From positions 1,082,844 through 1,146,843 of the forward strand of contig OZ220686.1 of the NCBI GenBank assembly GCA_965116435.1: a stretch of 64,000 nucleotides of DNA, in the 5' to 3' direction. The notes below the pieces were generated by a model. That model saw only the letters and a list, made by a program, of their open reading frames with translations. It searched no databases and had not been told where the DNA came from. Source of the stretch: Rhodothermales bacterium. Lineage in GTDB: Bacteria > Bacteroidota > Rhodothermia > Rhodothermales > VXPQ01. Positions 7,068 through 34,038 of the stretch are shown piece by piece. The translations under genes and the position numbers were made by a program. The first letter of the stretch is position 1. Every line of letters begins with the position of its first letter.

Positions 7068-7103
7068 GGTCGGTGTTTTATATGGATGCGCTGGTTACAG
7101 GAT

Positions 7104-11742: not shown

Positions 11743-12504
11743 ATGTCGTTCGACCGGAAAATCGTTGTCGTCACCGGGGCGGCCCGGGGCATCGGGGCCG
11801 CCGCCGCAGAACTGTTTCTTGAAAAAGGGGCTCGCGTGGCCTGTCTGGACGTGACGCCTGCCGCCGAAGCGCCTACGGAAAACGGCTTCTGCGTCCAGTG
11901 CGACGTGTCGCAGGCGGATCAGGTGGAACACGCCTTCCGGCAGGTGCTCGACCGGTTCGGGCGCATTGACGTTCTGGTCAACAATGCGGCGGTCCAGACG
12001 TACGGCACAGTGGAGGAAACGACCGAGGAAACATGGGATCGGGTGCTGGCCGTCAATGTAAAAGGGGCCTTCCTGTGCGCAAAGCAGGCGCTGCCGGGGA
12101 TGACTGCGCAGCGCGACGGGGCGATCGTGAATGTGTCGAGCGTACAGGCCCTGATGAGCGAAGAGCATGTGGCCGCGTACGCCACCAGCAAGGCCGCCAT
12201 GCTGGGCCTGACCCGCAGCATCGCCGTGGATTATGCGCCGTACAATGTCCGCTCCTCTGCCGTGTGCCCGGGCAGCGTGGACACGCCGCTTCTGCAATGG
12301 GCGGCGGACCAATCCAACGACCCGGAAGCCATGATGGACGAAATCCGGGGCATGCACCTCCTGAATCGCATAGCCGACCCAAGCGAAATAGCCCACCTGA
12401 TCGCCTACCTGGCAAGCGACGAGGCCAGCTTCATCACCGGCCAAGCCTTCCGCATCGACGGCGGCCTGGGGGTGAAGGTGGGCGGGGCTTTTCGGGGGAG
12501 GTAG
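11743..12504 (+). CDS. Short-chain dehydrogenase/reductase (SDR)
   Basis: TGAARGIGAA Rossmann motif, NNAAV, and the catalytic YATSKAAMLGLTR (YxxxK). Confidence 0.9.
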   Translation: MSFDRKIVVVTGAARGIGAAAAELFLEKGARVACLDVTPAAEAPTENGFCVQCDVSQADQVEHAFRQVLDRFGRIDVLVNNAAVQTYGTVEETTEETWDRVLAVNVKGAFLCAKQALPGMTAQRDGAIVNVSSVQALMSEEHVAAYATSKAAMLGLTRSIAVDYAPYNVRSSAVCPGSVDTPLLQWAADQSNDPEAMMDEIRGMHLLNRIADPSEIAHLIAYLASDEASFITGQAFRIDGGLGVKVGGAFRGR

Positions 12505-12664
12505 GGGGTGAGGTGAGAAGACATTCGGGCAAGCGCTGGCAACGCCATCGAGCAACTTCGGGGATTAGCGTGATGACAGATACGTTCATAGATACGTTTC
12601 AGGAATTGACAGACAGGATGCATAAGAAACCATCCCGATTTCTTGAGGAAATGGGTTTGCTTAC

Positions 12665-14866: not shown

Positions 14867-14992
14867 TTAAGGTGCAGGGTTGCAAACTTGTTCCGATCCA
14901 TTAGATCCAAGGATGTTATGCCTCGACGCACCCGCAGAATCCGGTAGCACATCCAGCAACAGACGAACCTGTGCAACATAGCGTTCAAGCAT
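14867..14992 (-). pseudogene. Possible 41-codon remnant of an AbiEii-type nucleotidyltransferase toxin gene
   Basis: Its ATG overlaps the abiEi stop (ATGCTTGA), as in intact abiEi-abiEii operons. The peptide MLERYVAQVRLLLDVLP... stops after 41 codons, where a toxin of about 250-300 aa would be expected. Confidence 0.3.
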
Positions 14993-15830
14993 TGCTCTCT
15001 GGGGATGCAGGTTTTGCGGACACGAGAAATTGCGGCACGGAAATACGATAGATTGGGTGGAACTTGCCGCAGTCGACAAGGGCCCGCGGACCGGAACCGA
15101 AGTCGATCCGAGCAGCGTCCAGATATTTTCTCCAACGGTGTTCGTGCCGGTCAGCAAAGACGAAGAACAGTCTGCGCACCTTCACGCTGCGACAAACGGT
15201 CAGCAGCTCCATGAGCAAATTTGGCCGTAACGAAACCAGCCCTTCGAATATACGGTCGATATGTTCAAAGCTGGCCTTGCCAGGTAGTTCGTTGAGCGCC
15301 TCAAGAATCGCGCGTTCTGGAGACGAGGCTCTGACGGGCCAGCGCCATACATCTACCGCCCACCCGTCCAAGTTGGCCTCGAAGTCGGTATCGACGACGC
15401 CGACCGGGTCGCCGCCGAACAGCATCTCCTGTCGAACCACGATCCGTTCCTGCGCAGGCAAACGCGCCAGCCAGGACGGCGTATCGCCGTAAAGATAGAC
15501 GCGCGAACTTTCCCCGAGGGGCAAATAATGAACATGACCCGCAAGATTGAGCGCACTCTCGCCGCCCAAATAGACATTGTACCCCATGAGGCGTTGCAAC
15601 GAGAGTAGAGCGACTTCCCAAGACTTCCCTGTCGCCTGGACGCTCTGTGGCAACGGACGCCGGTAGACTCCGCGAATCACCCGCTCAAGCCATCCGCGAG
15701 CAACGTAGTCGTGAATGGACTTGGGATCAATATCGCGCCCCCTGAGCCATCGCGCATCGACCATGAAGCCCGGCGGAACCGTGTCCAGGAGTGGTTTTAA
15801 TTTTGGTGTTTTTACATGGTTCATAACCAT
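14985..15830 (-). CDS. AbiEi-family type IV antitoxin / transcriptional regulator
   Basis: 281 aa. The N-terminal region ..FMVDARWLRGRDIDPKSIHDYVARGWLERVIRGVYR resembles the AbiEi N-terminal wHTH. GC is lower than in the flanks. Confidence 0.6.
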   Translation of the reverse strand: MVMNHVKTPKLKPLLDTVPPGFMVDARWLRGRDIDPKSIHDYVARGWLERVIRGVYRRPLPQSVQATGKSWEVALLSLQRLMGYNVYLGGESALNLAGHVHYLPLGESSRVYLYGDTPSWLARLPAQERIVVRQEMLFGGDPVGVVDTDFEANLDGWAVDVWRWPVRASSPERAILEALNELPGKASFEHIDRIFEGLVSLRPNLLMELLTVCRSVKVRRLFFVFADRHEHRWRKYLDAARIDFGSGPRALVDCGKFHPIYRISVPQFLVSAKPASPESNA

Positions 15831-17740: not shown

Positions 17741-18871
17741 ATGACGTTCTGGCGCCATCGTACGCGGATACCCGCTCCCCTGTTCGCCGTCGCCGTATTT
17801 GCGGGCGCGGGATGGCTCTTTGCCGCCTGCGGTGCGAACAACGAACAACCCGCCGCCGGAGAAAACGGCGGGCAGCCCGCGCTCCGGGCAAGCGATCTCG
17901 CCCAACCCGGGGAAACGCGCCTGCGCAACCTCCGCCAATTGACGTTCGGCGGGGAGAATGCCGAAGCGTACTGGGCCTTCGACGGATCGGCGCTCATCTA
18001 CCAGGCTCGCAAGCCGGGCATGGAATGCGACCAGATTTATATCATGGACGATCTGGAAACGGCCGCGTCCCGCATGGTCAGCACGGGCGACGGGCGCACC
18101 ACCTGCTCCTATTTTTATCCGTCGGGAAACCGGATGCTCTATTCGTCCACGCATCTTGCCACCCAGGATTGCCCTCCGGCCCCGGACTTCTCCCAGGGCT
18201 ATGTCTGGCCCATCTACCCGAGCTACGACATCTTCGCCGCGGATGCGGACGGCGCCAACCTGCAACGGCTCACCGAAACCGACGGCTACGACGCGGAGGC
18301 CACTTTTTCGCCCGTCGGAGACCGGATCGTGTTCACGAGCATGCGCGACGGCGACCTGGAACTGTATTCGATGGCCCCGGACGGCTCCGACGTACGGCGA
18401 CTGACGAACCGCATCGGATACGACGGCGGCGCATTCTATTCCCCGGACGGCTCCCGAATCGTCTGGCGAGCGCATTACCCCGAGCCGGGGCCGGAACAGG
18501 ACGACTACCTCCGCCTCCTCGACCAGGGCCTCTTGCGTCCCGGCGATCTGGAGATTTACGTGATGGATGCGGACGGCTCGAACATGCGCCAGGTGACGCA
18601 CCTCGGCGGAGCCAACTTCGCCCCTTACTGGCATCCGGACGGAGAACGCATCCTGTTCAGTTCCAATCACGAGGACCCGAACGGACGGGAGTTCGAAATC
18701 TACATGATCGGCATAGACGGAACCGGCCTGACGCGCATCACGCACTCCGAAGCATTCGACGGATTTCCCGTATTCAGCCCGGACGGGCGCTACCTCGTGT
18801 TCGGATCGAACCGCAACAACGCGGGCACGAACGATACGAACCTCTTCCTGGCGGAATGGGTGGAGGAATGA
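17741..18871 (+). CDS. TolB-like PD40/WD40 beta-propeller lipoprotein
   Basis: Signal [20 protein letters not shown]40 repeats recur: [59 protein letters not shown]. Confidence 0.85.
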
Positions 18872-18951
18872 GTGTCGGGGGTTAGGGGGTGTGGCGTATG
18901 TGCGGTATCGCGGTGCGTGCTGCCACCTGCGTTACCGCCCGCCTTCTGCGG

Positions 18952-19035
18952 TGCCCAAGAGAGGACTCGAACCTCCACGCCCTAACGGGCACATGACCCT
19001 GAATCATGCGCGTCTACCAATTCCGCCACTTGGGC
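18952..19035 (-). tRNA. tRNA-Leu (anticodon CAG)
   Basis: The reverse complement GCCCAAGTGGCGGAATTGGTAGACGCGCATGATTCAGGGTCATGTGCCCGTTAGGGCGTGGAGGTTCGAGTCCTCTCTTGGGCA folds as a class II tRNA. It has a 7-bp acceptor stem, the anticodon loop TTCAGGG, a long variable arm and a GTTCGAGTC T-loop. Confidence 0.9.
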
Positions 19036-19295
19036 CCGGTGCGCACTGGTTGCCTGCCTTGTGTTGCTTGTCCTGCGCCGCTTGCCTTGTTCTCCGCCAT
19101 GCACCCAGTGTCCGGCGGGCTATCAATGCCTTTGGGGCGAAGAAGGTTCCGTGCAAACAGCCCCTCCAGACTACTATTTCCTGTATGTGTCGAATGCATG
19201 GGCGCAGATTCTTGTGGAACCAGCGCCTTGCCCCGGAGTTATTACAGAATAGGCTGTTTTTTCGGAGTGCGGGCACATGCCTGGCGCCCCTACCC

Positions 19296-19370
19296 TCCTC
19301 GGTAGCTCAATGGTAGAGCATGCGGCTGTTAACCGCAGGGTTGTAGGTTCGAGTCCTACCCGGGGAGCCA
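19296..19370 (+). tRNA. tRNA-Asn (anticodon GTT), CCA encoded
   Basis: In TCCTCGGTAGCTCAATGGTAGAGCATGCGGCTGTTAACCGCAGGGTTGTAGGTTCGAGTCCTACCCGGGGAGCCA the acceptor TCCTCGG pairs with CCGGGGA. The anticodon loop is CTGTTAA and the T-loop is GGTTCGAGTCC. The island begins immediately 3' of it. Confidence 0.92.
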
Positions 19371-19396
19371 ACATTCTGTCGGCTCAATGGAGAAGA

Positions 19397-19867
19397 GTGG
19401 TGGCGGTACCACTTGCAGACCAGATCATACGGAAGGTCAAGCAAGCGGCTGAACTCTATCACCGGCTGCTTTTGGTCGTCGCGCCGGCGGGTGCGGGAAA
19501 GACGACTGCGCTTCATGATGTACAGGATCGCACCGGTGCGCCCCTCGTCAACGTCAACCTGGAGCTATCCCGCCTGATGCTGGAATTGACAGAGCGTCAA
19601 AGGGCGCTACAGTTGCCTCATCTTCTCAGGGCGATCGTCGGCAATGGGGGCGGAGAGATGATTCTGCTCGACAATATTGAAATCCTCTTCGATTCCAGTC
19701 TGAAGCAAGACCCGCTTCGGCTACTCCAGGGACTCTCCCGCAACAAAACCGTCGTGGCTGCATGGAACGGCGCCATCGTTGAAGATTCTTTGACCTATGC
19801 CGCTCCAGGTCACCCGGAATACAAGCGCTATCCGATGCGCGATTTTCTGGTGGCAAGCCCGGAGTGA
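19397..19867 (+). CDS. brxF: Small P-loop ATPase, BrxF-like (BREX type 3 marker)
   Basis: The listed ORF 19277-19867 starts inside the tRNA, so GTG at 19397 (or 19400) is the likely start. Walker A is LLLVVAPAGAGKTT. A Walker B-like motif is EMILLDNIEILF. The tail reads PLRLLQGLSRNKTVVAAWNG..LTYAAPGHPEY. Size (~156 aa) and position directly upstream of brxC fit BrxF. Confidence 0.65.
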   Translation: MVAVPLADQIIRKVKQAAELYHRLLLVVAPAGAGKTTALHDVQDRTGAPLVNVNLELSRLMLELTERQRALQLPHLLRAIVGNGGGEMILLDNIEILFDSSLKQDPLRLLQGLSRNKTVVAAWNGAIVEDSLTYAAPGHPEYKRYPMRDFLVASPE

Positions 19868-19909
19868 CGATATGAAAATTACAAATTCCATTGCAAGGAA
19901 GCAGCCACA

Positions 19910-22900
19910 ATGAAATACGGTGACCTGATCCAGTTTGAACCCATTGAGTCCGTGGTCCAGCTGCGGAACGCCGACGAAGCGACTGCGGCACGGCAACTTG
20001 TCGAGACCTACGTTATTTCAGAGGAGATGGCGGAAACGCTGGTGGGCCTTGTCATTCCCCAGCTGCAGTTCGAGCACCCCACCGACAACAAAGGCCTTCT
20101 GGTGGTCGGTAACTACGGCACCGGTAAGTCCCACCTGATGTCGGTGATCTCCGCACTTGCGGAAAACGCCGACCTCGCCCCCTTCTTGAACAATTCAGAC
20201 GTGGCGGATGCCGCCGGAAAGATCGGCGGACGATTCAAGGTGGTTCGCACCGAAATCGGGGCCACCACCATGTCACTTCGGGACATCCTCGTGGCCGAGT
20301 TGGAAGAGCACCTTGAGGACATGGGCGTGAGTTACAGCTTCCCCTCTGCGGATCAGGTATCCAACAACAAGCGGTCCTTTGAAGAGATGATGACCGCGTT
20401 TCATCAGGAGTTTCCAGACCACGGACTGCTCCTCGTCGTGGACGAACTGCTTGATTATCTGCGCACGCGCAGGGACCAGAAACTCATCCTGGATCTGAAT
20501 TTTCTCCGTGAAATCGGCGAGGTCTGCAAGGACCTGCGCTTCCGCTTCATGGCCGGCGTTCAGGAAGCGATCTTCGACAGCCTACGCTTTTCCTTTGTGG
20601 CGGACAGCATCCGCCGGGTACGGGATCGCTTCGAGCAGGTCCTGATCGCCCGCAAAGACGTCAAGTTCGTAGTGGCCGAGCGACTGCTCAAAAAGACCGG
20701 CGAACAGCAGGCCAGGATACGCGAGTACCTGACGCCCTTCGGCATGTTCTACGGCCACATGAACGAGCGCATGGACGAGTTCGTCCGCCTCTTTCCGGTA
20801 CATCCCGACTATATCGACACCTTCGAGCGGGTGACCGTCGTGGAGAAGCGCGAGGTATTGAAGACCCTCTCGCTGGCCATGAAGAAGATACTCGACCAAG
20901 ACATACCGGACGACCGGCCCGGGCTCATTGCCTATGATACCTACTGGACCAATCTTCGGGAGAACCCCTCGTTTCGTGCCGTACCGGATATCAAGGAAGT
21001 GATCGACTGCAGTCAGGTACTGGAGTCCCGTATCCAGCAGGCCTTTACGCGCCCGACTTACAAGCCCATGGCATTGCGGCTCATTCACGCCCTGTCGGTT
21101 CATCGGCTCACCACGAACGACATTTACACCACCCTGGGTGCAACAGCCGGGGAACTGCGGGACGGGCTCTGCCTCTATCAACCAGGCATTGAGGATCTGG
21201 GCGGTGATCCGGCCGACGACCTGCTCTCCCAGGTGGAGACAGTGCTGCGGGAAATCCACAAGACGGTCAGCGGGCAGTTCATTTCATCGAACCCGGACAA
21301 CCGCCAGTTCTATCTGGACCTGAAGAAGACCGACGACTTCGACGCGCTGATCGAAAAGCGGACAGAGAGCATCGACTCCTCAACACTGGACCGTTATTAC
21401 TACAAAGCCCTGAAACGGGTCATGGAGTGCACGGACCAAACCTATGTGCGCGGCTACAAGATCTGGCAGCACGAACTGGAATGGCTGGAGCGCAAGGCCG
21501 CGCGTCAGGGGTATCTGTTTTTCGGTGCGCCCAACGAACGGTCCACCGCTGTGCCGCCGCGGGATTTCTACCTCTACTTCATCCAGCCCTTCGATCCACC
21601 GCCCTTCAAGGATGAAAAGAACGCCGACGAGTTGTTCCTGCGACTCACGAACCCGGACGACGAATTTCGCACCTCGCTCATGAGTTACGCGGCAGCCCTG
21701 GACCTGGCCTCCACCTCGTCAGGGCACGCCAAGTCCACTTACGAGTCCAAGTCATCCCATTTTCTGCGGGATATTGTGCAATGGCTACAAAAGCACATGA
21801 GTGACGCCTTCGAGGTCACCTATCAAGGCCGCGCCAAGTCGCTCACTGAATGGGCCAAGGGCAAATCGATCCGGGAGCTATCCGGCATCGGCTCCCATGA
21901 GCGCATCAACTTCCGCGACCTTGTGAACACGATCTCCGGCATCTGCCTGGGAGCCCATTTCCAGGATCAGGCGCCTGAATATCCCTTCTTCTCGGTGCTC
22001 ATCACCGGGACCAACCGGGACCAGGCCGCGCAGCATGTCTTGCGCGCCATCGCCAGCCAGAATCGAACCAGGCAGGCTACGGCGGTGCTCGACGCCTTGG
22101 AACTGCTCGACGGCGAACGACTCGACCCCTACAAATCGAAATACGCCAAACACATCCTTGGACTACTCAATAAGAAAGGCCACGGTCAGGTGGTCAACCG
22201 CTCCGAGCTGATCCAGGATGACAAGGACGTGGAATACATGGACAAGGACCGGCAGCGGCTGGAACCTGAATGGGTTGCGGTCGTGCTGGCCGCCCTGGTC
22301 TACGCCGGTGATCTGGTCCTCGCCATTCCGGGCAAGAAATTCGACGCTACCGGTCTGTCGCAGCTGGCAGGAACCGGCATCGACGAACTCACGCAGTTCA
22401 AGCATATCGAACAGCCCAAGGACTGGAACCTTCCGGCGCTCAAGGCCTTGTTCGAACTGCTCGGTCTCACTCCCGGCATGGCCCAGCTTGTCACTCAGGG
22501 CAAGGAAGAGCCTGTCCAGCAGCTCCAGAAAGCTATCTCCCAGATGGTGGATAAACTGGTGCTTTCGCGGCAGAGCCTGGAAAGCGGTCTACTTTTCTGG
22601 GGCCGAAATCTCCTGGCCGAGAAAGAGGCGCAAAAACTTCGCATCCGGCTTGATAAGACCAAGATCTTCCTGGAATCGCTCCAGGCGTACAGCTCGCCCG
22701 GAAAGCTCAAGAACTTCCGCTATGACGCGCAGGAGGTAACCGCCCATCGGAACGAGCTCAATTCCCTGGCTGAAATCGAATCCCTCCAAGAACTGGTCGC
22801 TGATCTCGGTTCCACCGCCTCCTTCCTCTCCACCGCCGAAGCGGTTCTGTCCGCCGAACACGAGTGGGTAGGCAAGATGCACGAGGCACGGGACGAAGTG

Positions 22901-23638
22901 CTCGCCCAGCTTCGTGACCCGGACAAGCGCGAGACCGCCACCTTCCGTCAGCAAACCCAGCGCAAACTGATCGACCTCAAAAAGGCCTATGTGCAGACCT
23001 ATCTGGGAATGCACACCAGGGCACGGTTGGGCGTGAACGAGGACAGGCGCAAGAACGGCCTCATGGGAGATGAACGGCTCAAAGTGCTGCAGAAGCTCTC
23101 CACCATCGAGTTGATGCCCCTCCAGCACCTGATTGACTTTCAAAATCGTTTGGCCGGATTGAAAGGCTGCTTTGCCCTCACCGGGCAAGAGATGGACGCT
23201 TTACCGGTATGCCCGCACTGCAGCTATAAACCAGAGGCGGAGCCGCCTGCCGCACCTGCCGGAACGGTGCTGGACGGCTTGGACGACGAACTGGACAATC
23301 TGGTGGCCAACTGGACCCAGACGCTGCTCGCCAACCTGGAAGATCCGACCACCAAGGGCAACCTGGACCTGCTCAGGCCCGAACCCAAAATTCTGGCAAA
23401 CGACTTTATCAAGAAGCGGGAGCTACCCAACAATCTCGGCCAGGATTTCATCCATGCACTGAGCGAGGCGCTTTCCGGCCTTCAAAAGGTTCCCGTCAAG
23501 ACCGAGGACCTGCGAGCGGCGCTGCTCTCCGGCGGTTCACCGGCAACACCGGTTGAGATGAAGAAACGATTCGAGGAATATCTGGACGAACTTACCAAGG
23601 GCAAGGAACCCGGCAAGGTGCGCATCGTGCTGGAGTGA
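19910..23638 (+). CDS. brxC: Large BREX ATPase, BrxC/PglY family
   Basis: 1242 aa. The N-terminus is [34 protein letters not shown]. Walker A is [11 protein letters not shown] and Walker B is [13 protein letters not shown] long helical C-terminal half contains a CPHC element. Confidence 0.8.
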
Positions 23639-23642
23639 AATC

Positions 23643-25499
23643 ATGACTCAAAATGAACTGGCCAATCTGCTCAACGCTCATGAATGGCGAGATGTTGAGT
23701 TCAAGGAGGCGCAACGGAACGTGCCGCGAAACGCCTATGAAACGGTTTCCGCTTTTGCGAATACCGAAGGCGGTCATCTCGTGTTCGGCGTTCGGAAAAG
23801 TGGACAAGATTTCGAATTTGTCGGCGTTCTTGATATCGACAAGGTTCAGAACGATTTCCTGACAGCACTGCGACAACGCGACAAGCTGAGCATCATTGTG
23901 AATGTTCGTGAAGAACTGCACAAATACGGCGAATCAGACTTGCTCATTTTCTACGTGCCGGAAGCCCATCGCTCGGAAAAACCGGTTTTCCTGAATGGCG
24001 ACATTCGTCGATCATATGTGCGCAGTGGCGGCTGCGATGTGCGCTGCTCGGACAATGAGCGGAGCCGATTCCTTGTGGATGCTGCTGCCGAACGATATGA
24101 CGGCCAGCCTGTTGACCTGAACCCAAGTACGGCGTTCGACAGGGAAAGCATCAAATGGTATCGGGCCTTTTATGAAATAAGGCCGGGAAACCGATCTCAC
24201 GCAACGCTATCCGACACAGATTTCCTAAAGGAACTGGGGTTGCTGGTTGAAGAGCACGGCGAAGTGTCTCCGTCGCGCGCTGCGATTTTTCTGTTTGGGA
24301 CCAATGCGACTTTCCGGCAACTCCTTCCACGGCCGGTAGTGGACTGCCAGAGGTTCTCGCTGCCTCGTGACAGGGCTGATGTCGGTGAGCGATGGATTGA
24401 CCGTCTCGTTCTCGACGAAAACCTCATTCGGTCCTGGCAATCCCTTATCGATTGGTACCAAAGATTCGCGGAGCGGCCATTCAGAATTGACCCAATAACC
24501 TTGCAGCGAGATGACGCACCGCCGGACTACCGCGCCTTTCGTGAATCCATGGTCAACCTGATCATCCATCAGGATTATTCCGATCATTCCAGGAATCCGG
24601 AAATACGTCACTATACCGACCGGACCGTCTTTTGGAATCCTGGCGATGCCTTCGCTGCTGATACAGACCTGCTTGAACCCGGTGAAAAAGAGGTCCGAAA
24701 TCCCAGGATCGTGACCGCTTTCCGGCGCATAGGGCTGAGCGAGAACGCTGGCTGGGGTCTGCGAGATGTCTTCCGCAATTGGCAGCAGTTGGGCCATGTT
24801 CCGCCGACGATTGCTAACAACAAGGGGCGCAAGTGTTTTGAGCTCATTCTCAAAAAAGAAGAACTCATGTCGGAACAGCAGATTCTTTTCCAGGCAAGCC
24901 TCGGTGTGCAGCTCAGCAACGAACAAGCCAGGGTGCTTGCTTTTGCCTGCCGCGAAAGTATAATCTCACTTCCGCAAGTCAAGGCCGTAACGGGTCTTGC
25001 CGGACCGGATGCCGCGGAGCTTGCCAATGCCCTGGTTACAAAATCTCTCCTCAGGACCCTTGAGGACAGTAGAAAATACGCCTTGGCAGAGCACTTGAAG
25101 AAAATGTTCCACCAAACCGACCAAGCCACTGACCAACCTGATGTACGGGCCGAAAACTTGTCCACTGCACAAGTCGAAGGCCAAGAGGAAGACTTGTCCA
25201 CTGGACAAGTTCCTGTCCTTGCAGAACTTTCCGAAACTCATTGGAAAATCATAGCGTTATGCGATGTACCCCGCCGCTTGGCCGAGATTCTGGAAGCCCT
25301 TGGCGTAACCAACAGGGGTTATTTCAAGGAACACCACCTTGACCCACTGATTCAGTCCAAGATTGTGGCGATGACCAACCCGGAGAACCCCCGGGCATCA
25401 AACCAGAGATACGTAATCACCGAAGCGGGCGCTTTGTTGAAAGCACGCCGCATGTCTGACGACACCGACCGAAGCGAGGATCAGAATGGCAATGTTTAG
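23643..25499 (+). CDS. AlbA_2 (Schlafen-like) + HATPase_c_4 + winged-helix protein (RecG-like putative DNA-binding regulator)
   Basis: The N-terminus EWRDVEFKEAQRNVPRNAYETVSAFANTEGGHLVFGV is the AlbA_2 signature. The middle ..YRAFRESMVNLIIHQDYSDHSRNPEIRHYTDRTVFWNPG is HATPase_c_4-like. The C-terminal wHTH-like segments end ..HHLDPLIQSKIVAMTNPENPRASNQRYVITEAG. It starts 5 bp after the brxC stop and overlaps the next gene by 14 bp. Confidence 0.75.
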   Translation: MTQNELANLLNAHEWRDVEFKEAQRNVPRNAYETVSAFANTEGGHLVFGVRKSGQDFEFVGVLDIDKVQNDFLTALRQRDKLSIIVNVREELHKYGESDLLIFYVPEAHRSEKPVFLNGDIRRSYVRSGGCDVRCSDNERSRFLVDAAAERYDGQPVDLNPSTAFDRESIKWYRAFYEIRPGNRSHATLSDTDFLKELGLLVEEHGEVSPSRAAIFLFGTNATFRQLLPRPVVDCQRFSLPRDRADVGERWIDRLVLDENLIRSWQSLIDWYQRFAERPFRIDPITLQRDDAPPDYRAFRESMVNLIIHQDYSDHSRNPEIRHYTDRTVFWNPGDAFAADTDLLEPGEKEVRNPRIVTAFRRIGLSENAGWGLRDVFRNWQQLGHVPPTIANNKGRKCFELILKKEELMSEQQILFQASLGVQLSNEQARVLAFACRESIISLPQVKAVTGLAGPDAAELANALVTKSLLRTLEDSRKYALAEHLKKMFHQTDQATDQPDVRAENLSTAQVEGQEEDLSTGQVPVLAELSETHWKIIALCDVPRRLAEILEALGVTNRGYFKEHHLDPLIQSKIVAMTNPENPRASNQRYVITEAGALLKARRMSDDTDRSEDQNGNV

Positions 25500-28353
25500 G
25501 CATGATGCTGGACAGCGGCAGTTGTTCAAAACCAAGCTGGTCCCGGGCAATGCGGAATCGGGCAATCTCTTTAAAGAGGAGGTGGTCACGGACGATGATC
25601 CGGTGGAATGCCTCGGCATAATCTTCGAAAGCAATGAGAAACGCCGCGAGTATTTCCTGGAGAAGTTGCGCGAAAAACTCGAGGATCCTGAGTTCCGCAA
25701 GATCGAAGGGTTCCCCATTGGTGAGGACGAGGACATCCTGGCCTTGTCCGACCCGCCGTACTACACGGCTTGCCCCAATCCATTCATCGAAGACTTTATC
25801 AAGCACCACGGGAAGCCGTATGATCCAGCTACTGATGATTATCGAAGAGAGCCCTTTGCGGCTGATGTGAGCGAAGGGAAGACCGACCCAATGTATAATG
25901 CTCACGCTTACCACACAAAAGTCCCTTATAAGGCAATCATGCATTACATCCTGCACTATACAGAACCAAATGACCTTGTTTTCGATGGTTTCTGCGGCAC
26001 AGGCATGACTGGCGTAGCGGCTCAAATGTGCGGTGATACCGAGATCGTAAAAGAGCTTGGTTACTCGATTAGTGAAGATGGCTCATTGACATCGAAACGC
26101 CACGTACATGATATTCAGCAGCAGATTCAAATAGGGACGCGAAATGCCCTAATAAGTGACCTCTCACCCATTGCTGCTTTCATTTCTGCTAACTACTGCT
26201 TGCCATTCGATGTTGACGCGTTTCAAAGAGCAGGGACACGCCTGCTTGAGGACGTCGAACGTGATGTGGGGTGGATGTATGAGACTGCTCATTCAGATGG
26301 TCGTCGTGCAGGAAAGATCAACTTCACAGTATGGAGTGATATCTATGCATGCCCTGAATGCGCCGAAGAGATTGTTTTTGTGGAGCAAGCATTCGATCCT
26401 GATGAAAAGCGAATAAGGGACAACTTCGCTTGCCCAGGCTGCAGTGCGTCGCTTACCAAGAATGATTTAGAGCTGTTGTACAGTTCATACATCGACGCAG
26501 CAACTAACGAAACTGTTCGTCATCCCAAGCGCAAACCTGTCTTCATCAATTACTCCATCGGAAAGTCCAGATTTACCAAGAGAGTGGATGTCGATGATTT
26601 GGAGAAACTGAAAAAAATCGGCCAGCTACCTCTTCCTCCAGAAATTCCAACTCTCGAACTTCCTGATTCACAAATGCGGCGTGTTGGCCGAATGAAATCA
26701 GCAGCCGTCACGCATATTCATCATTTTTTCCTTCCTCGACCTGCTCAAGCGCTTGCATCTTTATGGCGGAGTGCTTTGGCGATTGAGGAACGACGCCTTC
26801 GGAATATGGCAGTATTCTTTGTTGAGCAGGCGATCTGGGGACTTTCGATTTTGAATCGCTTCAGCCCATCCCATTTCTCTCAAGTTAATCGTGCACTATC
26901 AGGAGTGTTTTACGTACCCTCACAGATCTCGGAAGTCAGCCCTAATTATGTGCTATCTGGAAAACTGAACCGCTTGGTCTCAGCGTTTTCAGGGCAACAT
27001 ATTCGGGATTCCAAGGTGATGATCTCAGTCGCCGATTGCGCTCAAACTCGAATCTCAGACAACTCGATTGACTATGTTTTCACTGATCCTCCGTTTGGTG
27101 AGAATATTTACTACGCAGATCTAAATTTATTGCTTGAATCATGGCATGGTTTATTAACTGCACCCGCACGGGAAGCGATAATTGATCGTGCACGCGGAAA
27201 AGCACTCAATGATTATCAAGCACTAATGGAGGAATGCTTTAGTGAGTACCATCGTGTATTGAAACCTGGGAGATGGATAACGATTGAATTTCACAATTCG
27301 AAAAATAGTGTGTGGAACTCAATTCAAGAGGCTCTTCAGAAATCAGGATTCGTAATAGCTGATGTTCGGATGCTCGATAAAAAACAGTGTTCATTTCAAC
27401 AAGTAACCAGTCGAGGCGCCGTCAAGCAAGACCTCGCGATTTCAGCTTACAAGCCAAATGGTGGAATCGAGGATCGCTTTAAATTGACCGCCAGCACAGA
27501 GGATGGTGTTTGGGATTTCGTTCGGACGCATCTGAAGCAGCTCCCAGTATTTGTTTCAAAAGATGGCCAAGCTGAAGTTGTCGCTGAACGTCAGCACTAC
27601 TTGCTTTTCGATCGAATGGTGGCCTTCCATGTCCAGCGCGGTGTGACGGTTCCCATGTCCGCTGCAGAGTTCTACGCCGGCCTCGAACAACGTTTTCCCC
27701 CACGTGACGGTATGTATTTTCTGCCGGACCAAGCAGCCGAGTACGATAAGAAACGGATGACGGTCAAGGAAGTGCTCCAGCTTCAGATCTTCGTCTCCGA
27801 CGAGGCGTCTGCTATTCAGTGGCTCAAGCAGCTGCTCACCAAGAAGCCACAGACCTTCCAGGATGTCCACCCGCAATTCCTAAGGGAAATCGGCGGTTGG
27901 CAAAAACATGAAAAGGTGTTGGAGCTTTCCGAACTGCTGGAACAAAACTTCCTCCGTTACGACGGCAAAGGCGATGTGCCCAGCCAAATTCACAGCCACC
28001 TGTCCTCAAACTACAAGGAACTGCGCAATCTGGCAAAGGACGATCCAGCGCTCAATGCCAAAGCCAAGAACCGCTGGTACGTGCCCGACCCGAACAAGGC
28101 TGGCGACTTGGAGAAGCTACGCGAGCGGGCCCTGATGCGGGAGTTCGAGGAATACCGTGAATCGAAACAGAAACGCCTGAAGATATTCCGCCTGGAGGCT
28201 GTCCGGGCCGGATTCAAGAAGGCATGGCAGGAGCGCGATTACGCCACGATCATCGCCGTGGCCCGCAAGATACCCGAAAAAATTCTCCAGGAGGACCCCA
28301 AACTCCTCATGTGGTACGACCAAGCACACACCCGTTCAGAAGAGGGGACATGA
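25486..28353 (+). CDS. pglXI: DNA methyltransferase (N6-adenine/N4-cytosine type), PglXI-like
   Basis: 955 aa. The SAM-binding motif is VFDGFCGTGMTGVAAQ and the catalytic motif is YVFTDPPFGENIYY. An extra N-terminal LSDPPYYTACPNPF is present. A zinc ribbon CPECAEE..(20)..CPGC lies between the motifs. Confidence 0.8.
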   Translation: MAMFRHDAGQRQLFKTKLVPGNAESGNLFKEEVVTDDDPVECLGIIFESNEKRREYFLEKLREKLEDPEFRKIEGFPIGEDEDILALSDPPYYTACPNPFIEDFIKHHGKPYDPATDDYRREPFAADVSEGKTDPMYNAHAYHTKVPYKAIMHYILHYTEPNDLVFDGFCGTGMTGVAAQMCGDTEIVKELGYSISEDGSLTSKRHVHDIQQQIQIGTRNALISDLSPIAAFISANYCLPFDVDAFQRAGTRLLEDVERDVGWMYETAHSDGRRAGKINFTVWSDIYACPECAEEIVFVEQAFDPDEKRIRDNFACPGCSASLTKNDLELLYSSYIDAATNETVRHPKRKPVFINYSIGKSRFTKRVDVDDLEKLKKIGQLPLPPEIPTLELPDSQMRRVGRMKSAAVTHIHHFFLPRPAQALASLWRSALAIEERRLRNMAVFFVEQAIWGLSILNRFSPSHFSQVNRALSGVFYVPSQISEVSPNYVLSGKLNRLVSAFSGQHIRDSKVMISVADCAQTRISDNSIDYVFTDPPFGENIYYADLNLLLESWHGLLTAPAREAIIDRARGKALNDYQALMEECFSEYHRVLKPGRWITIEFHNSKNSVWNSIQEALQKSGFVIADVRMLDKKQCSFQQVTSRGAVKQDLAISAYKPNGGIEDRFKLTASTEDGVWDFVRTHLKQLPVFVSKDGQAEVVAERQHYLLFDRMVAFHVQRGVTVPMSAAEFYAGLEQRFPPRDGMYFLPDQAAEYDKKRMTVKEVLQLQIFVSDEASAIQWLKQLLTKKPQTFQDVHPQFLREIGGWQKHEKVLELSELLEQNFLRYDGKGDVPSQIHSHLSSNYKELRNLAKDDPALNAKAKNRWYVPDPNKAGDLEKLRERALMREFEEYRESKQKRLKIFRLEAVRAGFKKAWQERDYATIIAVARKIPEKILQEDPKLLMWYDQAHTRSEEGT

Positions 28354-30986
28354 TGGCTAAGAAACAAATTTTTAAAACCGACTTCACCCGGACTACCGGA
28401 CCTACTGATCCGGAAGCACTTTTCCACAATTTACGGGGAAGGGCTCCAGACATTAAGCACCTTTGGTCGCACCAAGCCGATCTTCTTCGAGACTATCACC
28501 AAAAGTGTCTTGAAGCAAGAGATGTGGCTATTGAGCTCCCTACGGGATCAGGAAAGACACTTGTAGGCTTGCTGATCGCAGAATGGCGACGGCAATCGTT
28601 TAATGAGCGTATCGCCTACCTATGCCCCACTCGTCAGCTTGCTTATCAAGTTGGATCGCAGGCTAATAACTATGGAATTAGAGCCCATGTGTTGGTTGGA
28701 CAGCAAAGCTACTATCCTCCTCAAGAATTCAGCGAATATCAATCAAGTCGTGCTATCGCGGTAACCACATATAGTGGGGTGTTCAATAGATATCCAAGAA
28801 TTGAAGATGCACAGACATTGATTCTGGACGATGCACATGCGGGTGAAAATTTCATGGTCAGCATGTGGTCCGTGGAAATATCTCGTTCATCCATTGATAA
28901 TACCTACTTTTCGATTGTTGAACTTTTGCAAAATGCGCTGAATTCAGGATTCTATTCAAACATTTCAGATCGCACTGATCGGGATTCGACGAAAGCTCGT
29001 ATGACAGAGGTAGAGCTAATCGCTGGAGCTTCAATCCGTAAACACGAGGATGCCATCAGAGACCTTCTTGACGAGAATCTTGAAAAAAAGACATCTCCAT
29101 GGTATGCGTGGAATAATGTTAGAGAAAATATCACCGCTTGTAATTTTTTTATTTCTTGGGATACAATTCTCATCCGGCCATTCATTCCACCAACTCAAAC
29201 CCACGCGCCATTCGAGCAGGCGATTCAAAGAGTTTATATGTCGGCAACATTAGGAGCTGGTGGAGAACTGGAACGTATTACCGGCATCAAGTCTATAAAG
29301 CGTTTGCCCCTTCCCCTAGGATGGGACAAACGAGGTAGCGGACGGAAGTTATTCCTTATTCCAGAACTATCAATGATCAACGAAAAAATGATTGAAGTTG
29401 TAAAAGATGCAGTGCAAAAATTCGACCGAAGTCTTATTCTTATTCCTAGTCGATATGACTCTGAAGGTGCTGATCTAATCAACGTTATTGATCGATTAAA
29501 TATGAAAACATTTCATGCTGCTGACATTAAGGACAGTCTCGACCCATTTCTGAGTAGCACTAACTCCGCCTTGATTCTTTCGCGTTACGACGGATTAGAT
29601 TTACCTGACGAAGCCTGTCGCCTGCTTATTTTTGGTGGACTACCCAGCGGGACCAATCTGCAAGAAAAGTTTCTGTGGTCCAAAATAGCAGCCTCTTCGC
29701 TATTTAGAGATCGCGTGATAACACGTTTTGCCCAAGGCGTTGGCAGGTGTACGCGATCTGATAATGACTATGCTGTTGTATTGATGATCGGCCGTCGGTT
29801 GATTGATTTTCTTTTGAAGAATGAAAATCGTCAAATTTTGAATCCAGAATTGCAGGCAGAGATTAAGTTCGGCATGGAGAATTCCAGAGACAAGTCTGTA
29901 GAAGATTTTCAGGAACTGCGGAGAGTGTTCTTGTCACAGGGCGATGATTGGAAAGACGCAGAATCTGCGATTCTCGCTCTGCGAGATAGCTGTTCTCGCC
30001 ATGATGATCCAATCTCAAGGAAGCTAAATTCTGTGGTTGCCGATGAGGTTTCCTATCTCTATGCAATGTGGAGCAACAATTTTGAAGATGCGCTTGAGCA
30101 CGCGCGAAAAGCCGCGGATGCGCTTGGTGGTGATGAGACAAAGGCATATCGAGCATGGTGGTATTACCTTTCTGCTGAAGCGGCGATGGTTCTTTATGAA
30201 ACCACTGGAAAGGAAGCCTATCAAGATACCGCCCGAAACTTCCTTAAACGTGCCACTCGATGTTGTACCGGTGTTAGTTGGTTTGCACGCTTGGGGCGAT
30301 CATTCAATACCGGTGGTGAGACTCTGGAAATCAATGAAAAAATTGCGATAGCCGTTGAGACAATCAGAGGGCATTTGGCTAATTGGGGTGCTGTGGGTCA
30401 ACTGTTTGAACAGCAACTCACTCAGGTCATGAATAACATCCAATCCATTGAACACAAGGCATTTCATCAAGGACTCAAGGGGCTAGGTGAGATGCTTGGT
30501 TTCTACTCAGAATTGCCAGAAGGGGACGCTGCGCCTGATTGCATTTGGTCCGTTGGAAATCTAATCTATGTAGTACATGAGGCCAAATCGGAACACACGC
30601 CAAAGGACCCTATCGGGGTCAACGATATCCGGCAGGCGCAAAGCCACGGTAACTGGGTCCGGGCCAATCGAACATGTGAAGATAATACCGAAATTATCTG
30701 TCTGATTGAGAGCCCACGTGTAGCAGTAGCTCCAGAAGCCATTGCTCATGCTGAGTCTCTTTACCATGTGACCCCTGCACAGCTGAAAGAATTGTTTGAC
30801 AAGACCGCTGGCATTCTCCGGCGAGTCAGATCGAAGTTGACCGATCTCAGTGATGAGAAAGTCCTTGAGGAGCTATCACGCGAACTCATAACGGGCAGCC
30901 TTACACCTATGCGATTGGTGGAAAGGTTTTCCCAAATGCCTGTTGCCAACATGGAAAGGCGTGGCGGTAGAGGAAACAGCAGTTGA
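28350..30986 (+). CDS. SF2 helicase (DinG/XPD-like C-terminal motifs) fused to a C-terminal PD-(D/E)xK nuclease-like module; occupies the BrxHII position
   Basis: The start ATGATG overlaps the methylase stop (ATGA). Motif I is ELPTGSGKTLVG, motif II is LILDDAH and motif III is MSATLG. Helicase_C_2-like blocks are LILSRYDGLDLPDEACRLLIFGGLP and FAQGVGRCTRSDNDYAVVLMIG. The C-terminal ..APDCIWSVGNLIYVVHEAKSEHT..IRQAQSH fits D...ExK...Q. Confidence 0.75.
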   Translation: MMAKKQIFKTDFTRTTGPTDPEALFHNLRGRAPDIKHLWSHQADLLRDYHQKCLEARDVAIELPTGSGKTLVGLLIAEWRRQSFNERIAYLCPTRQLAYQVGSQANNYGIRAHVLVGQQSYYPPQEFSEYQSSRAIAVTTYSGVFNRYPRIEDAQTLILDDAHAGENFMVSMWSVEISRSSIDNTYFSIVELLQNALNSGFYSNISDRTDRDSTKARMTEVELIAGASIRKHEDAIRDLLDENLEKKTSPWYAWNNVRENITACNFFISWDTILIRPFIPPTQTHAPFEQAIQRVYMSATLGAGGELERITGIKSIKRLPLPLGWDKRGSGRKLFLIPELSMINEKMIEVVKDAVQKFDRSLILIPSRYDSEGADLINVIDRLNMKTFHAADIKDSLDPFLSSTNSALILSRYDGLDLPDEACRLLIFGGLPSGTNLQEKFLWSKIAASSLFRDRVITRFAQGVGRCTRSDNDYAVVLMIGRRLIDFLLKNENRQILNPELQAEIKFGMENSRDKSVEDFQELRRVFLSQGDDWKDAESAILALRDSCSRHDDPISRKLNSVVADEVSYLYAMWSNNFEDALEHARKAADALGGDETKAYRAWWYYLSAEAAMVLYETTGKEAYQDTARNFLKRATRCCTGVSWFARLGRSFNTGGETLEINEKIAIAVETIRGHLANWGAVGQLFEQQLTQVMNNIQSIEHKAFHQGLKGLGEMLGFYSELPEGDAAPDCIWSVGNLIYVVHEAKSEHTPKDPIGVNDIRQAQSHGNWVRANRTCEDNTEIICLIESPRVAVAPEAIAHAESLYHVTPAQLKELFDKTAGILRRVRSKLTDLSDEKVLEELSRELITGSLTPMRLVERFSQMPVANMERRGGRGNSS

Positions 30987-31013
30987 GAACTGAAGAAAAA
31001 ACCCTGGAACTGA

Positions 31014-31262
31014 GTGAACTGCTTCATAATTAAGATTGATGCAAAAAACCGATATTTTAGTCCGGACCATGGACAAATCTGCCAGACCATCAAGACCCAG
31101 ATGCTCTGGGGCGAGACGACCTGTCGGGTATGGCTATCCAACCGCGATTCGATGGTCCGCGTCCCTGCATCCAGGCTGCCCCCCCTGAAGGATTCAAGAA
31201 CAAGAACCGCTACCGGAAATGACGCCTCTCCTTATCTTACGGGTTACAGGAGGTACCCATGA
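31014..31262 (+). CDS. Doubtful 82-codon ORF in the helicase-pglZ spacer; its stop overlaps the pglZ ATG
   Basis: ORF-track entry. It ends ..YRRYP* with TGA overlapping the ATG of pglZ (ATGA). The segment GQICQTIKTQMLWGETTCRVWLSNRDSMVRVPASRLPPL could be a small beta-rich domain or a gene remnant. There is no independent support. Confidence 0.2.
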   Translation: MNCFIIKIDAKNRYFSPDHGQICQTIKTQMLWGETTCRVWLSNRDSMVRVPASRLPPLKDSRTRTATGNDASPYLTGYRRYP

Positions 31263-33265
31263 GTAACTGGCGCGACCAGATTCTCAGGGAGTTCACTCCC
31301 CATGTCGCCCGGCTGACCCTGGTTGCCGATCCAGACGGGCTGCTCCTGGAAGAAGGGGTTATTGGGAGCATACGCGAGCGTGGTTTTGAATTGATTCCGT
31401 TCGAGGATCATGTCGCCTTTCGCTACGCCTACGAATCCAGATTTCGCTCCCGCTGGGATCAGGGTGAGCAGACGGATTTGGTAGTCGTGCTGCGCTCTGC
31501 GGAGAGCGACCTCGGCTATCTGCCATACGATCTGCTCCAGGCAGGTCGCAAATTTTCATTCAACCTCGGGGATATCTTCCCCAGCCTGAGCTATCCAATC
31601 GTGACCGCCTTGGATCGGGGGGATCTGGATGCGCTCTACGAAGCCCAGAAGCAGCAGCACCCCGGAGTGCTGGGCGACAATGCTACAAAGGAATTCGTTC
31701 TGTGCCATGTCTTTGAGATCGATCCAGAACTCATCCGCAAGCCGTCCGATCTACTGCGGGTGCTGCTGCGCCGCCACTATCGGGAACAGCACATCCCCGC
31801 TTTGCTTGACGAGCGCTTTATTCAGATCCTGCGCCAACAGAGCGATTTTGAAGGGTGGCCCCTCGAAACGATTATCCCGGATCGAGAAGCCTTTTTCGCC
31901 TTTCTCCAGGAACGCTGGCCCATCTTCTTAAATCGGGCGGCAACCCAGGTTACCACCAGCACTCGCGAGGATGAGAAGCCCTGCGACCTTGAGTATCCCG
32001 GTCCTTCGAACTTGCCCTTCGACCATGACGACATCCGTGTCTATATCGACAACCTCTTTGTTGAAGGACTGCTTGAAGCGGTTGCCCATGATCAAGCCAA
32101 GTCGCTCTCCAGGACTTGGCTCGCCATAGGCATCCGAACGGACGAGCATGCGGACCGGGCGAGGCGCGTGGAGGGACTCCTCGATACCTTGGCGTCCGAT
32201 ATTCCGAATGAGGACACGCGGCACGAGGACTGGTTTCACTTTGCCAAAACCTGGGCGGAGCTTGTAGCGTTGGTGCTGGGTCCGAATGCGGTACTGCCGG
32301 AACCGGCGCGGCAGAAGATGGGAGCGCTTCAAGCTCAGATCGATGCCGCACTCGTGCCGTGGCTAACAAAACGCTACGCAGGATTGGTCAGCCTGCCTCC
32401 GGTTCCTCCGGTCATGCTCCATCATATTCCCCGTTTCCTCTCCCGCCATATTCACAATGGGAACCAACACAAGGTTGCGTTTATCCTGATGGACGGCCTT
32501 GGGCTGGATCAGTGGATCGTCATCCGAAAAGAAATCGCCAAACAGCGAGCCAATTACCGCTTTCGTGAGAACGCCGTGTTTGCCTGGATACCGACCATCA
32601 CGTCTGTTTCGCGCCAGGCTGCTTTTGCAGGAAAACCACCGATCTATTTCCCGAACAGCATCCATACCACCGACAAAGAACCGGCGTTGTGGACACAATT
32701 TTGGGCCGACCAAGGGCTTACACAGCAGGAAGTCGCATATGCCAAGGGACTGGGGAACGGCCCCCTGGAAAGTGTGGAGGAGATTGTTGCCCGGCCCAAG
32801 ACGCGGGTGGTCGGTCTGGTTGTCGACAAAGTGGACAAGATCATGCACGGCATGGAACTTGGCGCAAAGGGCATGCACAACCAGGTTCGCCAGTGGGCCG
32901 AGGGGCCATTCATGACGCAACTGTTTGACTTGCTTCTGGAAAACGGATTTCGTGTTTACCTGTCGTCGGATCACGGCAATATTGAAGCATCAGGTTGCGG
33001 CCGACCTGCAGAAGGAGCCGTGGCAAACCTGCGCGGAGAACGTGCTCGGATTTATTCCGATTCCTTGCTGCGAGGTCGGGTTAAGGAACGCTTCCCGGAC
33101 GCTTTGGAATGGCCTCCTATCGGGCTGCCGGAGGATTATTGGCCCCTGCTTGCTCCGCCTCGCGCCGCGTTTGTGCCCAAGACCAGAAACCTTGTCGGGC
33201 ATGGCGGCGTCGCTCTCGAAGAACTCATCGTCCCGCTTGTTCGGATTGAAAGAAGAGACACATGA
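31259..33265 (+). CDS. pglZ: PglZ alkaline-phosphatase-superfamily protein (BREX)
   Basis: 668 aa. The PglZ core reads VAFILMDGLGLDQW, FAWIPTITSVSRQAAFAG, VDKVDKIMHG and VYLSSDHGNIEA. Confidence 0.85.
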   Translation: MSNWRDQILREFTPHVARLTLVADPDGLLLEEGVIGSIRERGFELIPFEDHVAFRYAYESRFRSRWDQGEQTDLVVVLRSAESDLGYLPYDLLQAGRKFSFNLGDIFPSLSYPIVTALDRGDLDALYEAQKQQHPGVLGDNATKEFVLCHVFEIDPELIRKPSDLLRVLLRRHYREQHIPALLDERFIQILRQQSDFEGWPLETIIPDREAFFAFLQERWPIFLNRAATQVTTSTREDEKPCDLEYPGPSNLPFDHDDIRVYIDNLFVEGLLEAVAHDQAKSLSRTWLAIGIRTDEHADRARRVEGLLDTLASDIPNEDTRHEDWFHFAKTWAELVALVLGPNAVLPEPARQKMGALQAQIDAALVPWLTKRYAGLVSLPPVPPVMLHHIPRFLSRHIHNGNQHKVAFILMDGLGLDQWIVIRKEIAKQRANYRFRENAVFAWIPTITSVSRQAAFAGKPPIYFPNSIHTTDKEPALWTQFWADQGLTQQEVAYAKGLGNGPLESVEEIVARPKTRVVGLVVDKVDKIMHGMELGAKGMHNQVRQWAEGPFMTQLFDLLLENGFRVYLSSDHGNIEASGCGRPAEGAVANLRGERARIYSDSLLRGRVKERFPDALEWPPIGLPEDYWPLLAPPRAAFVPKTRNLVGHGGVALEELIVPLVRIERRDT

Positions 33266-34038
33266 GCACAGGGAGAGACCGACGGCACAGCCAGATTGGC
33301 CTGGATCGGCTTGTTCGGCTTGACTGGTTAGAGCAAACTGCCTATCTGGTCCTGGCCGGGAACGAAGCGCATAAAATGAAAACTATCCTGCAGGAGGAAC
33401 TTTCAGATGCGTTCCGCTCCAGCAACGCCGATGTGCGAGGTTCGCTCGACAAAACAATCACCATTTTGTTGAGGATTTGGGCGGGCGTTTCAGGCAATCT
33501 CCATCCACTTCGGGAAGATGGGCTCAATCTACTCTCAAGCCTGCCTCGGAAAGACCATATTGCAGTTCATTGGGGTATGACCATGGCGGTTTACCCTTTT
33601 TGGGGTTCGGTCGCCGCCCATACAGGACGGCTACTCAGGCTTCAAGGCACGGCGGCAAGCGATCAAATACAGCGCAGAGCGCGGGAGCAATACGGAGAGC
33701 GCGAAACGGTCTCTCGTCGAGTTCGCTATGTGCTGCGCAGCTTTATTGACTGGAACGTACTGGAAGAGACGCGAGTCAAGGGGACTTACAGCCAAGGAAA
33801 CCACTATCTGGTTGAAGAACCCAAGCTCATTGCCTGGATGATGGAAGCATCCCTCCACGCCCGGGTGAACGGGTCGGCCGCCATAAAAGACCTGCTCGAC
33901 AGCCCGAGCATCTTTCCCTTCCGATTAACCCATATCTCAGCCGAACATGTGGCGTCGCTCTCGCCTCGTCTGAATATCCTTCGGCACGGACTGGATGACA
34001 ACCTTGTGATGCTACATGAAAAAGGAAGGAGAACATGA
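33262..34038 (+). CDS. Uncharacterised 258-aa protein, translationally coupled to pglZ; candidate BrxA-like component
   Basis: ATGA overlap with the pglZ stop. It is helical-looking, with no TM segment or catalytic motif that I can see. The BrxA assignment rests on its position as last gene of a type-3-like operon and on size only. I cannot confirm sequence similarity from memory. Confidence 0.4.
   Translation: MSTGRDRRHSQIGLDRLVRLDWLEQTAYLVLAGNEAHKMKTILQEELSDAFRSSNADVRGSLDKTITILLRIWAGVSGNLHPLREDGLNLLSSLPRKDHIAVHWGMTMAVYPFWGSVAAHTGRLLRLQGTAASDQIQRRAREQYGERETVSRRVRYVLRSFIDWNVLEETRVKGTYSQGNHYLVEEPKLIAWMMEASLHARVNGSAAIKDLLDSPSIFPFRLTHISAEHVASLSPRLNILRHGLDDNLVMLHEKGRRT

Follow-up and report, generated by a model that had tools for sequence, protein, structure and literature searches.

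Two kinds of phage-defense system provide the background for the gene described here. Hna, from Sinorhizobium meliloti, is a single-gene, self-sufficient abortive-infection system (PMC13381803). It has no Fe-S cluster and is a Mg2+/Mn2+-dependent 3'-5' exonuclease of single-stranded DNA (ssDNA), with an ATP-induced auto-inhibited dimer and a phage single-stranded DNA-binding protein (SSB) as its activator; the K729A substitution abolishes its exonuclease activity (PMC13381803). The second kind is bacteriophage exclusion (BREX), in which 77% of type-3 systems (BREX-3) carry the helicase BrxHII. In its canonical form, BrxHII (~940 aa) is a RapA-like Swi2/Snf2 protein; a Tudor domain lies at its N-terminus, and it further contains an inactive restriction endonuclease (REase) domain and an additional alpha+beta domain (PMC12839542). 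"BR type-1" Snf2-REase helicase-nucleases and some BrxHII proteins of type-5 BREX bear an active REase, and the auxiliary effectors nested in BREX and BR loci include fusions of an REase to a superfamily 2 (SF2) helicase; the same report makes no mention of Hna, DinG or XPD (PMC12839542). Here, we analyze a 64,000-nucleotide stretch of DNA from Rhodothermales bacterium (contig OZ220686.1, positions 1,082,844 to 1,146,843; hereafter, the window), in which a type-3 BREX operon contains a gene for an 878-aa Hna-like helicase-nuclease. Neither the Hna family nor the embedding of effectors in BREX is new; the window protein adds a divergent member to the former, which corresponds to the PADLOC family PDC-S28.

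Evidence for this assignment comes from profiles, pairwise comparison, and predicted structures, by which the protein is classified as a divergent Hna. The PDC-S28 models match it over residues 14-867 (PDLC04987, E 4e-118; PDLC04986, E 3e-114). We recovered the gene for S. meliloti Hna from pSymA (L097:2786-5323; the prefix L denotes loci in our collection), and its product scores E=0 on PDLC04986 and E 5e-120 on PDLC04987. Therefore, PDC-S28 is the Hna family, and what had been an orphan PADLOC candidate is now tied to a characterized protein. Hna is also the top PDB sequence match (10uj/9yhn/9ykj), with E 3e-39 when a single sequence is used and 8e-64 with a 60-sequence profile, and the alignment runs collinearly through two blocks, helicase (residues 13-535) and nuclease (residues 695-835). 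In a direct pairwise comparison, the two proteins are 25% identical over 816 aa (E 2e-43). When the AlphaFold 2 (AF2) model of the whole protein was searched with Foldseek, the Hna monomer 9yhn ranked first (E 7e-37, TM 0.65/0.69 over 890 columns), followed by DinG, XPD and CasDinG at E 1e-13 to 1e-10. The C-terminal domain alone likewise retrieves the Hna nuclease domain first (E 7e-7), and its weaker fold matches are all PD-(D/E)xK proteins: HindIII (E 1e-3), N.BspD6I (E 5e-3), Hjc (E >=0.1), McrC (E ~0.4), and Cas4-like enzymes.

Hna (PDB 9YHN, 9YKJ and 10UJ) and the window protein fall in the same length class (845 versus 878 aa) and have in common a HEL1-HEL2-linker-NUC order, a DinG/XPD-like core without an Fe-S cluster, and a PD-(D/E)xK site that includes the downstream Q and W. 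They differ in that identity is only ~25%, and the window protein lies in a distinct sub-clade (a single cluster at 50% identity, of which P0077 is the representative). Members of this sub-clade are often found inside BREX-3 or DUF499 operons and are translationally coupled to a methyltransferase, whereas solo genes encode Hna itself and the more distant members. The family as a whole comprises 907 clusters at 50% identity (E<1e-30). Full-length but distant Hna-like relatives (33-37% identity) occur on five predicted viral or prophage contigs from IMG/VR (L098-L102), and others (24-39% identity; H1-H40) are borne on many plasmids, in hosts that include Agrobacterium, Salmonella, Enterococcus, and Mycobacterium marinum. 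Given these viral, prophage, and plasmid locations, the wider family is often carried on mobile elements.

The first-pass annotation, which was made from the sequence alone, had described the protein as a fusion of a DinG/XPD-like SF2 helicase with a PD-(D/E)xK nuclease-like C-terminus. This description is borne out by Pfam matches, by the alignment with Hna, and by the AF2 and Foldseek results, and every motif that it quoted is present in the 878-aa protein, far beyond chance (Table 1). Pfam recognizes DEAD (4e-14), ResIII (3e-9), and Helicase_C_2 (2e-7). The blocks typical of a Helicase_C_2 second lobe are LILSRYDGLDLPDEACRLLIFGGLP at residues 408-432 and FAQGVGRCTRSDNDYAVVLMIG at residues 460-481. 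No Pfam or NCBIfam model covers the C-terminal 380 aa, and neither collection has a family-specific model for the whole protein. The AF2 model of the entire protein has a mean confidence (pLDDT) of 87.8 and a pTM of 0.88, and a separate model of residues 684-878 has a pLDDT of 93.9.

The nuclease domain contains PDCIWSVGNLIYVVHEAKSEHT at residues 729-750, followed by IRQAQSH at residues 760-766. We aligned 60 sequences that are 47-85% identical to the query (alignment A1). In all 60, residues D730, E744, K746, Q762, H766, and W769 are invariant, as are helicase motifs I, II, III, and VI. Across 113 full-length homologues (46-100% identity), the same nuclease residues and helicase motifs are at least 98% conserved. 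The alignment with Hna pairs D713 with D730, E727 with E744, and K729, the residue whose replacement inactivates Hna, with K746. Thus, the D-ExK-Q arrangement that the first-pass annotation had proposed is conserved among homologues, and modeling of residues 684-878 followed by Foldseek, which it had suggested as a check, leads to PD-(D/E)xK enzymes. From the conserved D-ExK-Q residues, the nuclease active site is predicted to be catalytically intact.

Resemblance to other helicases is more limited. DinG, XPD, CasDinG (Csf4), and ExoDinG have a Helicase_C_2-type second lobe in common with the window protein, and the PADLOC model for type-IV DinG matches it at E 2e-18. However, sequence similarity to these helicases is marginal outside the motifs, and DinG of the S. 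aureus type has an N-terminal DnaQ-like exonuclease in place of a C-terminal PD-(D/E)xK domain. A bona fide DinG or XPD (Rad3) was considered and rejected, because the protein lacks the four-cysteine Fe-S cluster (C92 is the only cysteine between motifs I and II), and its scores on the NCBIfam rad3 and DinG models are far below their cutoffs.

The window locus is a type-3 BREX operon, and the Hna-like gene occupies the usual slot of BrxHII, between PglXI and PglZ. A longer mechanical open reading frame (ORF) begins at 28224. The start that we adopt is the ATGATG at 28350/28353, which is backed by homologues beginning with MMAKK or MAKK; this ATGATG overlaps the TGA stop of PglXI. By its sequence arrangement, the gene is predicted to be co-transcribed and translationally coupled with PglXI. 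A 272-nt gap separates it from PglZ, and within positions 30800-31400 we detected no sigma-70-like promoter and no intrinsic terminator.

The first-pass annotation had placed this helicase in the BrxHII slot. The placement holds, but the protein is not BrxHII, since no BrxHII profile matches it, and a true BrxHII is co-resident in seven related loci. The two proteins resemble each other in their location in the PglXI/PglZ interval and in domain order, each being an SF2 NTPase whose helicase is followed on the C-terminal side by a domain of PD-(D/E)xK fold. However, BrxHII belongs to the Swi2/Snf2 group and carries a Tudor domain together with an REase that is inactive, whereas the window protein is DinG/XPD-like with a nuclease that looks active from its sequence. 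The window protein has no match to Pfam SNF2 or Helicase_C or to PADLOC BrxHII, and no similarity to the Tudor region; its nuclease motif is intact, unlike that of the degenerate BrxHII REase. We therefore rejected the possibility that it is a BrxHII variant. More generally, a helicase inside a BREX-3 operon is not necessarily BrxHII, although it is easily annotated as such.

What remains of BrxHII in the window lies in the gap upstream of PglZ, and we accordingly rejected the reading of this gap as an ordinary intergenic spacer. In tblastn searches, BrxHII of L005 matches positions 31053-31253 (BrxHII residues 10-73, E 5e-12), and the final 23 residues of BrxHII match weakly beside the start of PglZ. 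The resulting stub of 82 codons is 60% identical to BrxHII residues 10-54. It consists of codons from the N-terminal Tudor region (approximately BrxHII residues 10-64) fused to the PglZ-proximal end. Compared with the intact BrxHII of L004 and the stubs of L001, its ATG is mutated to ATT, and it diverges past approximately residue 60. Its end still overlaps the start of PglZ at an ATGA, and GGAGG lies upstream of this overlap. Given this stub and the presence of both genes in related loci, we conclude that BrxHII was deleted internally and that the Hna-like gene is a separate addition.

To place the window among related loci, we located contigs encoding relatives and scanned metagenome contigs with a profile. 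The clade at 48% identity or more includes 13 BREX-3 loci, and in every one the Hna-like gene follows directly after PglXI. Seven have a full-length BrxHII (L002, L004, L005, L008, L014, L015, and L017), and in five it is absent or a stub (the window, L001, L003, L007, and L009); the remaining locus, L006, is too short to judge. Thus, BrxHII is co-resident in 7 of the 12 informative BREX-3 loci, in the order PglXI, Hna-like gene, BrxHII, PglZ. BrxHII was identified in L002 and L005 by PADLOC PDLC02500 (E=0), and in L004, L008, L014, L015, and L017 by tblastn with the L002 and L005 proteins or by Pfam SNF2 plus Helicase_C. Two of the loci that have lost BrxHII, L003 (Gammaproteobacteria) and L007 (Latescibacterota), retain their other core genes intact, as does the window. 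Other loci are damaged. In L009, the Hna-like gene (8360-8515 and 10001-12457) is broken by an insertion of ~1.5 kb that carries a 405-aa ORF with no family match, and a DDE_3 transposase splits PglXI in both L009 (5772-6914, - strand) and L005 (7606-8664). These two loci appear to be decaying.

The gene also occurs outside BREX-3. Three loci are DUF499/DUF1156/Snf2-NOV_C systems of "BR type-1" (L010, L011, which is the same as L025, and L082; 48-49% identity), in which the Hna-like gene has the Snf2 nuclease on one side and the methyltransferase on the other. Five loci (L012, L013, L016, L018, and L019) carry relatives of 54-60% identity as solo genes, some of them amid transposase, integrase, or prophage-type genes. 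More distant relatives, of no more than 42% identity, came from over 70 metagenomic loci; when BREX-3 and BR queries were run against these by tblastn, none of the corresponding genes turned up in the flanking sequence available, and many of these contigs are short. The DUF499/DUF1156 systems and the window have in common a helicase with an active, or in the window predicted active, PD-(D/E)xK nuclease within a BREX-type operon. They differ in that the helicases of DUF499/DUF1156 systems and of type-5 BREX are Swi2/Snf2 proteins, whereas the window protein is DinG-like; L010, L011, and L082 encode both the Hna-like protein and a Snf2-NOV_C helicase-nuclease.

Nucleotide composition also sets the Hna-like gene apart. 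GC content is ~62% in the chromosomal flanks, 53% across the BREX island (19277-34038), 49% in PglXI, and 46% in the Hna-like gene (45.8%, with 41% at third codon positions), the BREX genes as a group ranging from 49% to 58%. These steps suggest nested acquisitions, and the same dip at the Hna-like gene is seen in L001, L002, L003, L005, L007, and L014. Several loci bear what look like recombination scars. In L001, direct repeats of ~270 nt (3861-4130 and 7066-7334; 82-92% identity) derived from the BrxHII stub flank the Hna-like gene, and in L003, the direct repeats on either side of it are 179 nt long (9820-9998 and 12662-12840; 91% identity) and consist of the PglXI 3' end. L002 and L008 have an extra 5' fragment of BrxHII directly after the gene. 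The window has no direct repeats around the Hna-like gene. The repeats and fragments are consistent with acquisition through Campbell-like homologous recombination from one BREX-3 locus to another.

Other genes have entered the same junctions. Between PglXI and BrxHII, L002 and L008 carry DUF3644/PDC-S19, and L017 (10221-13384) carries, between the Hna-like gene and BrxHII, SIR2 and a protein that matches the Piwi domain weakly (E 7e-4, under the Pfam threshold); by sequence, this pair is possibly a short prokaryotic Argonaute. The junction between BrxC and PglXI holds Schlafen (the window, L003, and L007), a Sir2 (SIR2_2) protein with a HerA-like DUF87 protein (L014, 2525-5364), a phospholipase D-type (PLD) nuclease (L017), DUF6602 (L005), or DUF1828/DUF4062 (L009). 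The nested modules of L017 and L014 are probably defense modules. A Schlafen-HK-wHTH gene is a widespread embedded auxiliary of BREX and a putative RNase backup effector (PMC12839542), and the Schlafen/AlbA_2 gene of the window is a second embedded cargo gene.

We consider it likely that the Hna-like gene is an Hna-type cargo cassette in the BREX-3 operon, co-transcribed as a backup effector beside the core, and that BrxHII was deleted later. The cargo status is supported by co-residence with BrxHII in relatives, the stub, the solo and BR relatives, low GC content, the repeats, and the presence of other cargo at the junction. According to this model, a cassette of separate origin would have recombined into the PglXI/BrxHII junction of a BREX-3 operon, and the Snf2 helicase native to that operon, BrxHII, would have been deleted afterward to leave the stub of ~250 nt. 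By analogy with S. meliloti Hna, the protein may rest as an ATP-bound auto-inhibited dimer until it is freed by a phage cue, for example phage SSB or ssDNA that has a free 3' end; it would then degrade ssDNA in the 3'-5' direction and bring about abortive infection. In this scheme, the Hna-like protein would not be the BREX helicase but an additional layer, abortive or backup, alongside the methylation-based core.

Several observations weigh against this reading. Placement of the gene is not random: in BREX-3, it always follows PglXI, and in DUF499 systems it always lies between the Snf2 helicase and the methyltransferase. In L011 and L015, it has 4-nt start and stop overlaps with its neighbors on both sides. 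The BREX-3-embedded copies are nearly monophyletic in a neighbor-joining tree drawn without support values. At least two separate sub-clades with the Hna-like gene have lost BrxHII, while BrxF, BrxC, PglXI, PglZ, and BrxA are intact, and repeated loss with an intact core would also fit functional substitution. Moreover, the trigger and the abortive outcome may not carry over from the studied Hna, because the clade is only ~25% identical to it.

The placement, the overlaps, the near-monophyly, and the losses of BrxHII support the strongest alternative, which we nonetheless regard as unlikely: that the Hna-like protein is a non-orthologous replacement working as helicase or effector in the role of BrxHII and adding a nuclease, in a methylation-gated, restriction-like variant of BREX. 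Translational coupling to PglXI and steady placement at a methyltransferase/Snf2 junction in two related types of system speak for it, as do the BrxHII-less loci with intact core genes noted above. BrxHII is in any case present in just 77% of BREX-3 systems, and helicase-REase fusions are primary effectors in related BR systems (PMC12839542). However, a full BrxHII is kept alongside in most of the informative BREX-3 loci, close relatives stand alone, Hna is self-sufficient as a single gene (PMC13381803), and the composition, the scars, and the unrelated defense genes at the same junction all resemble cargo. Also, BrxHII losses were counted only in BREX-3 loci that carry the Hna-like gene, so enrichment cannot be derived from the count. 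The first-pass annotation had arrived at a similar hybrid of BREX and restriction from the premise that BREX lacks a nuclease. That premise is dated, as PglZ is now reported to nick DNA (PMC12839542). We give still less credence to a broader form of the idea, in which BREX-3 and DUF499/DUF1156 systems have domesticated the Hna-like clade as an integral, methyltransferase-coupled effector, with BrxHII displaced in the window and the exonuclease destroying unmethylated invader DNA.

It is improbable that the BREX-3 locus is a decaying remnant, dead through loss of BrxHII, with the Hna-like gene hitchhiking as its sole functional defense gene. The deletion of BrxHII to a stub without ATG and the clear decay of the relative L009, with its split Hna-like gene and its transposase in PglXI, would agree with this. 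However, BrxF, BrxC, PglXI, PglZ, and BrxA of the window are full length when compared with their models, and the BrxHII-less set is intact in L003 and L007, which is consistent with retention by selection after horizontal transfer. Least credible of all is that the PD-(D/E)xK-like domain is a non-catalytic sensor and the protein solely a helicase or translocase, for although inactive REase domains are common in defense helicases, including BrxHII (PMC12839542), the invariant D730, E744, K746, and Q762 align with the Hna active site, in which K729A kills activity, and the fold core is complete in a high-confidence model.

The recurrence of the cassette at methyltransferase/Snf2 junctions in BREX-3 and DUF499 systems offers a natural case for studying how embedded backup effectors relate to the BREX core. 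The series of loci with and without BrxHII, some with recombination scars, makes substitution versus backup directly testable. In particular, close loci that differ only in BrxHII (the window and L001 versus L004) bear on whether BrxHII is dispensable or has been replaced.

Coordinates of the gene, its domains and motifs, and the other genes of the locus are collected in Table 1. All genes of the locus lie on the + strand, and housekeeping-type genes border the locus: one for an M28 peptidase precedes it, and one for a LysR regulator follows. Because matches to the BrxF models begin only at residue 43 of the ORF (196 aa), the true start of BrxF is probably ~120 nt downstream of the position given.

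Table 1. Features of the Hna-like gene and the surrounding BREX-3 operon (window positions)
Feature	Position	Strand	Basis or remark
BrxF	19277-19867	+	PADLOC/NCBIfam models; 196-aa ORF
BrxC/PglY ATPase (DUF6079)	19910-23638	+	Pfam, PADLOC
Schlafen/AlbA_2 + HATPase_c_4 + winged helix-turn-helix (wHTH)-like (Fic-like_C) C-terminus, 618 aa	23643-25499	+	Pfam; between BrxC and PglXI
PglXI (BrxXI), BREX-3 N6-adenine methyltransferase	25486-28353	+	Pfam, PADLOC; directly upstream of Hna-like gene
Hna-like (PADLOC PDC-S28) helicase-nuclease, 878 aa	28350-30986	+	HMM, sequence, and fold matches
DinG/XPD-like SF2 core (HEL1 + HEL2), ~residues 36-500	28455-29849	+	Pfam, alignment, AF2 model, fold match
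Motif I	28539-28559	+	PTGSGKT, residues 64-70
Motif II (DDAH)	28818-28838	+	LILDDAH, residues 157-163
Motif III (SAT)	29238-29255	+	MSATLG, residues 297-302
Motif VI (QGVGRCTR)	within 29727-29792	+	
All-helical linker between helicase core and nuclease, ~residues 501-699	29850-30446	+	AF2-model secondary structure
C-terminal PD-(D/E)xK nuclease domain (predicted)	30447-30839	+	Conservation, Hna alignment, models
D730	30537-30539	+	Start of strand 2 in AF2 model
E744-A-K746	30579-30587	+	End of strand 3 in AF2 model
Q762	30633-30635	+	Helix after strand 3 in AF2 model
BrxHII remnant, 82 codons	31014-31262	+	tblastn; PADLOC BrxHII N-terminus, E 2e-10
BREX-3 PglZ	31259-33265	+	NF033449, E 7e-260
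BrxA	33262-34038	+	PADLOC

Two further observations concern the region upstream of the operon. Approximately 1.3 kb between the M28 peptidase and BrxF (17998-19276) has no assigned ORF and could hold the operon promoter, a regulator, or an island boundary. A gene for an AbiEi-type antitoxin/regulator (AbiEi_3, E 2e-36) lies at 14985-15830 on the - strand, ~3.5 kb upstream of the BREX locus.

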